This document shows positions 40,291-40,463 of a DNA stretch of 44,763 bases, one piece after another; position 1 is the stretch's first letter; every line of letters starts with the position of its first letter. Position numbers and translations under genes: made by a program. The notes under the pieces are model-generated. The model worked only from the letters and a program-made list of their open reading frames with translations, was not told the origin of the DNA and searched no databases. This stretch comes from a virus: UHGV virus genome UHGV-0246887; one strand, given 5' to 3'.

Positions 40291-40463
40291 GCATAAACCA
40301 AACGGGACAAAAAGCGGGACAAACACGAGGCGGGACAAAGCGGGACAGCACCCCCGTCCCGCCCCGGATGGCGCGGCTTCCAGAGGAGCGGGACAGGCGG
40401 GACAAACCCCAGTCTTTCAGACTAGACGGGGGTCAACGGCCCCCCTCGTCTGAGACTGAATAA
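40291..40463. repeat. Copy B of the ~172-bp CGGGACA-iteron element
   Basis: Near-identical to 11981..12152 with a few substitutions. Confidence 0.8.

Follow-up and report, generated by a model that had tools for sequence, protein, structure and literature searches.

A putative iteron-type replication origin downstream of the primase-helicase gene of a Dhillonvirus, with a second copy in the tail operon

Results

Two copies of one element in the genome

The stretch of DNA that was analysed as a whole, hereafter the window, has a length of 44,763 nt (44.8 kb; UHGV-0246887) and is the whole genome, circularly permuted, of a Dhillonvirus, an HK578-like virulent coliphage. A phosphoesterase gene spans both window ends (1-532 and 44180-44763), and because both ends fall inside this gene the window is a complete circularly permuted genome and not a fragment. 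The gene order is common to the window, HK578, Ioannina and StarDew, and phage Sponge is about 95% identical to the window around copy B of the element described below. Plus-strand genes begin near 37.5 kb and continue over the window ends as far as 24.3 kb, and the minus-strand replication and modification genes occupy 24.3-37.3 kb. A family of near-identical sequences with a GC-hairpin and a T-run (AAGGGGCC-N-GGCCCCTTTTT), two of which look bidirectional, is found at 5640-5664, 11115-11139, 21066-21099 and 24287-24311; these are probably intrinsic terminators that punctuate the long plus-strand late array.

The gene and the repeat with which this study is concerned are the following.

37877..40141, plus strand: primase-helicase gene, 754 aa, proposed initiator
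40290..40463, plus strand: copy B of a 174-nt repeat (family D1 of the repeat search)
11981..12154, plus strand: copy A of the 174-nt repeat (family D1 of the repeat search)

Copy B is located 3' of the primase-helicase gene and 5' of small plus-strand genes, the first ATG of which is at 40676. Three ATTGGTTGCC motifs (at 40153, 40207 and 40242) lie between the primase-helicase gene and copy B. There is also a 54-nt tandem duplication at 40130-40237, the second copy of which consists of the last 12 nt of the primase-helicase ORF and AAATTTTGCGCGCATTGGTTGCC. As read from the gene context in relatives, copy A sits between the tail chaperone G/GT gene, which ends at 11833, and the tape-measure gene (12218-14860), in an unusual gap of about 385 nt.

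The original prediction placed a second, near-identical copy of a CGGGACA-iteron element downstream of the primase-helicase gene, just after the three ATTGGTTGCC repeats and before a cluster of small plus-strand genes, and our coordinates agree with this in every part. The two copies were recovered as one 174-nt direct repeat with 96% ungapped identity in the repeat search, and blastn gave 98.3% over 175 aligned positions when gaps were allowed. All differences are confined to the one stretch that the prediction had quoted, which reads GGGACAGCGGGACAGCAC in copy A and GGGACAGGCGGGACAAAC in copy B. The pairwise alignment proposed as a check was run, and the similarity is colinear through the non-repetitive spacer and the 49-nt hairpin; it is therefore not a matter of low-complexity composition, and that alternative fails.

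CGGGACA occurs 18 times in the window, compared to 5.9 +/- 2.6 expected from dinucleotide-preserving shuffles (n=100), none of which reached 18. Copy B contains six of the occurrences, and eight more are inside copy A or next to it, forming clusters at 40.30-40.40 kb and 11.85-12.09 kb with no other cluster elsewhere in the window; the other four lie singly at scattered positions, as could be expected by chance. In the 260 nt that follow the stop codon of the primase-helicase gene, CGGGAC is present six times in direct and once in inverted orientation, when 0.27 would be expected.

Copy B is made up of these parts.

40269..40298, plus strand: AT-rich box, TGAATAGTTATGCA-N8-CTGCATAAAC (family D9)
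40303..40347, plus strand: four direct CGGGACA iterons (starts 40303, 40315, 40331 and 40341), invariant in 12 copies
40356..40361, minus strand: inverted iteron (GTCCCG on the plus strand), from folds and the iteron scan
40362..40388, no strand: variable central spacer, the most variable part of alignment A1 (see below), which separates A-type from B-type
40389..40404, plus strand: two further direct iterons (starts 40389 and 40398)
40410..40458, no strand: 49-nt bulged hairpin (CAGTCTTTCAGACTAGACGGGGG, loop, CCCCCCTCGTCTGAGACTG) with invariant arms and a variable loop

According to the folds, the inverted iteron of copy B can pair with the third and fourth iterons, in a hairpin GGCGGGAC...GUCCCGCC. 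The 49-nt hairpin of copy B has a free energy of -27 kcal/mol as RNA and a z of -3.5 as DNA. Copy A repeats these parts and has additional units upstream.

11836..11951, no strand: two extra partial units (families D16 and D9), with CTGCATA boxes
11845-11862: iteron palindrome AAACGGGAC/GTCCCGTTT in the partial units
11864-11869 (minus strand) and 11918 (plus strand): further iterons in the partial units
about 11926-11943: iteron palindrome AGCGGGAC/GTCCCGTTTT in the partial units
11960..11989, plus strand: AT-rich box of copy A, TGCATACATATGCA-N8-GTGCATAAAC (family D9)
11994, 12006, 12022, 12032, 12080 and 12088, plus strand: direct iterons of copy A
12047-12052: inverted iteron of copy A
12101-12149: hairpin of copy A

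The HK578 record annotates the first partial unit as a terminator. The number and orientation of the partial units differ among Dhillonvirus genomes, with examples at 11204-11237 in L004, at 11586-11619 in L006 and at about 11500-11567 in L002 and L005, and this variation suggests repeated local duplication or recombination upstream of copy A.

Conservation within the genus and gene conversion

The element was found in all 159 matching public Dhillonvirus records, nearly always at two places (334 places in total), and a 23-mer from the hairpin matched 13 of 16 IMG/VR contigs twice. Alignment of 12 A and B copies from 6 Dhillonvirus genomes (alignment A1) showed no variation in the six CGGGAC motifs, in the TGCATAAA box or in either arm of the hairpin (12 of 12 copies), whereas the central spacer and the hairpin loop vary. 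This pattern bears out functional constraint, which had been offered as one reason for the near-identity of the copies.

Recent gene conversion had been offered as the other reason, and it too is borne out. The within-genome identity of A and B is 75-89% in 18 other genomes, compared to 96% in the window. A copies from different genomes are 86-90% identical to each other, and B copies likewise resemble B copies. Copy A of the window departs from this, with 87.4% identity to the B copies and 82.4% to the A copies of other genomes, and immediately outside 11981-12154 the sequence stays A-type. The first 21 nt of the AT-rich box of copy A are also A-type and thus lie outside the conversion tract. 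From the high identity of the two copies, the affinity of copy A to foreign B copies and the A-type flanks, we conclude that the near-identity in the window reflects a recent B-to-A gene conversion in this lineage, as judged from sequence comparison, superimposed on long-standing purifying selection on the motifs of both copies. Copy B, beside the gene, appears to be the ancestral site.

Occurrence of the element in other phages

Beyond the genus, the element was identified in Enterobacter phage phiEap-2 (L007), the primase-helicase of which is 43% identical, in Salmonella phage FSL SP-038 (Cornellvirus), in four further IMG/VR contigs and in metagenomic contigs retrieved through homologues of the primase-helicase. 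Like Dhillonvirus, phiEap-2, Cornellvirus and about ten metagenomic clades thus have this layout immediately 3' of their primase-helicase gene, a position that speaks for an origin. The common order is an AT-rich box, three to four direct iterons, one inverted iteron, a spacer, one or two iterons and a hairpin of about 50 nt. The offsets from the stop codon are alike across clades: the direct sites are spaced by about 12, 16 and 10 nt, and the inverted site is followed by a gap of about 35-45 nt, one or two direct sites and a bulged hairpin of about 50-60 nt. The TGAATAGTTATGCAG...TG(A/C)ATA part of the AT-rich box is conserved from Dhillonvirus to Guernseyvirinae.

The iteron word changes from clade to clade as listed here.

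CGGGACA: Dhillonvirus, L016
(T/C)GGGACA: L025
CGGACAA: phiEap-2, L012
CCGACA: L015
GGGGGAGA: Cornellvirus
GTGTGGCAA: L055
GTGTGCCAA: L020
GGTGCCA: L056
TTGCGAG: L017, L019
TTCCGCACA: L023

Each word occurs 5-12 times per 420 nt, compared to 0-0.7 expected, and an iteron array follows the gene of the proposed initiator in 13 other loci. The recurrence of a word at conserved positions, with a sequence that varies by clade, speaks for an origin, and the naming of the CGGGACA repeats as iterons is supported. An GATTTATAAGGAG-like motif, at which a host factor might bind or the DNA might bend, lies between the iteron groups in the central spacers of L012, L018, L020, L055 and L056; the spacer of the window, which is GC-rich, lacks it. 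A scan of IMG/VR with GTGTGGCA-N(1-8)-GTGTGGCA, meant to reveal a second copy in the GTGTGGCAA clade, was non-specific, hitting at least 120 unrelated loci.

The complete genome of phiEap-2 has a single copy of the element, and the second copy therefore appears to be specific to Dhillonvirus on the genomes compared. Homologues of the primase-helicase in Kagunavirus and Jerseyvirus (27-35% identity) and in clade L021 have no iteron array right after the gene, which counts against the origin reading; in Kagunavirus and Jerseyvirus this place is taken by a terminator, a Cro/DicA-like gene on the minus strand and a sigma-70 promoter.

A bulged hairpin was found at the corresponding position in ten clades, with free energies of -23 to -33 kcal/mol. 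Its stems differ among clades and yet remain complementary (CAGTCT/AGACTG, AGTCTTAG/CTAAGACT, ATCATC/GATGAT). The hairpins were compared by single-sequence folds, given that RNAalifold on the cross-clade MAFFT alignment misaligned the arms and its consensus was meaningless. In DNA folds of the hairpin, 6 of 7 clades gave z values between -2.7 and -4.2. In each of the ten clades (10 of 10) the fold of the minus strand was at least as good as that of the plus strand, and the G-U counts were similar; this lack of strand bias is compatible with a hairpin or cruciform at the DNA level and speaks against one that only the sense RNA would form. An inverted iteron, TGTCCG in phiEap-2 (40090-40110 in L007) and TGTCGG in L015, is located in the hairpin loop of these two and varies along with the iteron type, so that the hairpin may present a predicted binding site in single-stranded form; no inverted iteron was seen in the hairpin loops of Dhillonvirus.

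The protein that may read the iterons

The domains of the primase-helicase and the other DNA-binding protein encoded nearby are as follows.

N-terminal part: AEP primase fold (the predicted fold matches RSF1010 RepB')
about aa 246-287: Cys/His cluster
aa 357-531: RepA-like AAA_25 helicase (Pfam)
about aa 666-737, coding 39872..40087, plus strand: C-terminal winged helix, proposed reader of the iterons
37537-37866: gene of a 109-aa HTH protein

Pfam recognized only AAA_25 (RecA-fold, RepA/DnaB-like) in the primase-helicase, PF03288 (Pox_D5) was not found in it with Pfam or NCBIfam, and NCBIfam gave it no name. The sole PDB sequence match was RSF1010 RepA, and for the comparison with RSF1010 the entries 3H25 and 1G8Y were matched in this analysis. 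The best structural matches of the predicted winged helix include the origin-recognition winged helices of Orc1/Cdc6. A homologue search with the C-terminal 200 aa alone returned none, and homologues were found with the full-length query.

The last 90 or so residues of the primase-helicase and the iteron word change together between clades. L012 and L013, which have different iterons, share 94.4% identity over 233 helicase and linker residues and only 43.2% over the last 95. In comparison, phiEap-2 and L012, both with CGGACAA, are 76.8% identical in the helicase and 60.8% in the winged helix. Judged from these alignments, the identity of the winged helix follows iteron type and not helicase phylogeny. 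However, there is an exception that counts against the origin reading: P0011 and P0012 have similar H3 helices and different iterons (GGTGCCA and CGGGAC). In addition, the coding region of the winged helix and the iterons are only about 100-250 nt apart, and the co-variation could therefore partly result from linked recombination rather than recognition.

The 109-aa HTH protein was considered as the reader of the iterons and rejected, since its HTH is invariant across phages of the Dhillon-like clades with four different iteron types. It is more plausibly a candidate reader of the equally conserved ATTGGTTGC, which would then be an early-gene operator. This motif is over-represented in the window, with 31 matches at one mismatch or less compared to 12.8 expected, and 16 of them exact (6242, 6256, 22345, 25491, 25502, 27164, 27181, 30138, 37332, 40153, 40207, 40242, 40524, 40614, 40645 and 41200). 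Those exact copies that were checked against the ORF map are intergenic or promoter-like and oriented as the adjacent gene, and in Guernsey-like relatives GTTGGCTGC replaces the motif at equivalent places. A 23-nt perfect inverted repeat, GCTATATTGGTTGCACACCAACA, occurs at 6233-6255 and 40640-40662; it is a promoter/operator-like module on opposite strands, upstream of two different genes.

Discussion

Several features of the element, namely its position, a layout that is retained while the iteron word changes, the co-variation with the winged helix, the predicted folds, the hairpin, the precedents in other replicons and the retention of two copies, favor the view that it is an iteron-type replication origin, or at least the site where the phage assembles its own initiator. 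We put the probability of this reading at roughly 0.6. The original prediction made no choice among replication, packaging and late transcription, and of these the comparative evidence favors replication. From the anatomy, the conservation, the co-variation and the predicted folds we infer a course of events in which the 754-aa primase-helicase would bind the CGGGACA iterons just 3' of its own gene through the C-terminal winged helix and oligomerise on the array, where one inverted site separates the first four direct sites from the last two. It would then open the adjacent AT-rich box, extrude the conserved hairpin or do both, and load itself as a RepA-like hexameric helicase. Priming would be carried out by its AEP domain, and the hairpin may have a role similar to that of the single-strand initiation sites of IncQ plasmids. 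Copy A appears to be a Dhillonvirus-specific duplicate maintained by selection and would serve as a second origin or as a cis-acting partner like crr of P4.

However, some observations do not fit well with an origin. The GC skew tracks the orientation of the genes; it switches near 24 and 37 kb, and nothing in it marks 40.3 or 12.0 kb. The short length of the AT-rich box is a further point, and a full second origin within a tail operon would be unusual. In the searchable literature we found no description of a Dhillonvirus origin or of an element of this kind, and the same was true for the Guernseyvirinae-like relatives.

The principle by which an initiator reads sites beside its own gene is known. 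In satellite phage P4, reportedly studied by Flensburg and Calendar in 1987 and by Ziegelin et al. in 1993, the alpha protein is said to unite primase, helicase and a C-terminal origin-binding domain in one polypeptide, and an octamer repeat reportedly lies at two loci, ori and crr, the latter being a pair of 120-bp repeats. As in P4, the same iteron is found here at two distant cis sites that are both conserved across the genus. However, the proposed initiator has no sequence homology to alpha. Moreover, crr does not reproduce ori in full, whereas copy A duplicates the whole element, AT-rich box and hairpin included. The oriV of RSF1010, reportedly worked out by Scherzinger et al. and, in 2009, by Geibel et al., is said to combine iterons, an AT-rich stretch and ssi hairpins with the proteins RepC, RepA and RepB'. 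The primase-helicase has both the RepB'-type AEP primase fold and the RepA-type helicase of this IncQ system, but the functions that IncQ distributes over three separate proteins are fused in one, with the winged helix in place of RepC. The iterons also set it apart from IncQ origins with a separate RepC, being 6-9 nt here and about 20 bp there. In IncQ, two ssi hairpins lie on opposite strands, whereas each element here has one palindromic hairpin that can fold on either strand.

In the pri-rep-ori replicons of SaPI in Staphylococcus aureus and in SCCmec, Rep and Cch2, respectively, bind iterons directly downstream of their own genes via a C-terminal domain (PMC7581432). According to the passage of that paper that cites Ubeda et al. 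2007, SaPI origin specificity comes from the C-terminal domain, and this specificity differs between elements (PMC7581432). The likeness to the present system lies in a self-loading initiator helicase, sometimes fused to an AEP primase, with a short-iteron origin directly downstream, and here too the iteron sequence and the predicted binding domain differ together between relatives. However, the helicase is of the D5/SF3 type or DUF927 in SaPI and Cch2 and a RecA-fold, AAA_25/RepA-like one here, which places the phage protein outside that class. Moreover, a conserved long hairpin is added here, there is a second distant copy in Dhillonvirus, and the host replicon is a virulent siphophage instead of a satellite or island. 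In the archaeal plasmid pRN1, ORF904 is a primase-helicase-winged-helix protein with an essential stem-loop origin of about 100 nt just 3' of its gene; the stem-loop is conserved in structure but not in sequence and has also been proposed for Bordetella phage BIP-1 (PMC4234260). The phage system resembles it in having a primase, a helicase and a winged helix together with a structurally conserved stem-loop 3' of the gene, and differs from it in its helicase, RepA-like here and SF3 in pRN1, and in its hairpin of about 50 nt, which follows an iteron array; in pRN1 no such array is obvious. What is distinctive is the fusion of all three IncQ-like functions, the hairpin beside the iterons and the complete second copy in the tail operon.

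We consider it unlikely that the element acts as RNA, for example as a structured leader or 3' UTR that the long plus-strand transcription array would contain in two places, with a role in antitermination, stability or termination (like put of HK022 or nut of lambda) or as a sponge for a protein that recognizes GGA motifs. The orientation of the element relative to transcription is constant, both copies and all homologues being oriented as the flanking genes, and this speaks for an RNA role. The plus strand of the whole element also folds stably (z about -2.3 to -2.5), the stem differences between clades are compensatory, a T-rich tail follows the hairpin in some Guernsey-like clades (L012: ...AGACTTTTATTCATT) and terminator-like palindromes lie upstream of copy A. 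However, there was no Rfam match for the whole window at the gathering threshold or for 40100-40700 at E <= 1, the hairpin lacks a G-U bias for the transcribed strand and folds equally well or better from the minus strand in the clades compared, and in Dhillonvirus it has no U-tract after it. Scans for promoter and terminator consensus sequences returned nothing in copy A or copy B, and a 6-9-nt word repeated 5-12 times at fixed positions is not needed for folding; this word also tracks a predicted DNA-binding winged helix. The next genes, besides, have their own promoter-like site downstream of the element. TTGCAT-17-TATATT at 40619-40647 has only 8 matches in 12 positions, and the promoter scan did not call it; the TGCATAAA box was considered as a -10 element and dropped for its poor sigma-70 fit. 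Quite improbable as well is a purely regulatory array without origin function, an operator or roadblock for autoregulation, insulation of the early operon or separation of transcription units; the protein on it would be the primase-helicase, through its winged helix, or another one of the phage. Winged-helix domains are common in repressors, region B is dense in the regulatory-looking motif ATTGGTTGC, and the sites do lie at boundaries of transcription units, i.e. at the end of the early plus-strand operon and at the junction of the tail chaperone and tape-measure genes. Against this, the sites are 3' of the gene and not at its promoter, and the predicted binding domain forms one polypeptide with a primase-helicase. 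Wherever the array is found, an AT-rich box and the conserved hairpin go with it, as in IncQ and pRN1-type origins, and no co-variation with the iterons is seen in the small HTH protein, the only dedicated regulator nearby.

A selfish or neutral repeat, MITE-like or a recombination-prone duplicate, would have no function, and the near-identity of its copies would simply mean recent duplication. The 96% identity in the window and the variable number of partial units upstream of copy A may give this impression. We regard it as very unlikely, as the element occupies the same two positions genus-wide in distinct A-type and B-type lineages (86-90% identical within type), which indicates that the duplication is old and has been maintained; the motifs stay invariant while the spacers drift, and the position of copy B is conserved across subfamilies. 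Arrays of short repeats flank a special site in pac of P1 and cosB of lambda, and the element has the look of such an array, in which the small terminase would bind. Still, a packaging signal is a highly improbable reading. Dhillonvirus EE09 is reported to have 10-nt 5' cohesive ends, ATCTTAAGGG (PMC10673088), and the window has a single exact match to this sequence, at 27151-27160, a long way from copy A and from copy B alike. The match is on the minus strand, intergenic among minus-strand early genes, beside two ATTGGTTGC and distant from the terminase genes. In the various clades it is the primase-helicase gene, not the terminase genes, to which the element is linked, and the iteron word tracks the winged helix of the primase-helicase. 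There is hardly any chance, finally, that the element encodes a small protein, although ORFs overlap it (40199-40453 on the plus strand, 40184-40405 on the minus strand and 11833-12144 on the plus strand) and several GenBank records annotate a 'hypothetical protein' over the match. Single-nucleotide indels at five alignment columns among orthologous copies show that these are not conserved reading frames, conservation goes by motif and not by codon, and in other clades the elements are unrelated in sequence with the layout unchanged. The 'hypothetical protein' annotations are probably spurious. No tRNA or tmRNA was found.

Returning to the element as an origin, we tentatively suggest a two-site system, although we do not rate it as likely, in which the origin at the gene and the copy in the tail operon cooperate by looping or as co-oriented starts and are homogenised from time to time by gene conversion; in the wider phage group, the winged helix and the iterons would form a swappable specificity cassette. 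If this is true, the two sites could loop like ori and crr of P4 or serve as two co-oriented leading-strand start sites, and the cassette would set replicon 'incompatibility types' among co-infecting siphophages. It is a more speculative thought that the co-oriented copies couple the entry of replication forks to the expression of the late genes downstream of each.

The element and the primase-helicase provide a candidate origin and a cognate initiator for Dhillonvirus, a genus that includes many therapeutic coliphages and coliphages of the BASEL collection, and for related Guernseyvirinae-like phages. At least nine winged-helix/iteron specificities on one scaffold would offer material for the evolution of initiator-origin recognition and for orthogonal phage replicons, and the copy in the tail operon may serve as a test case for distant auxiliary origin sites in lytic phages.
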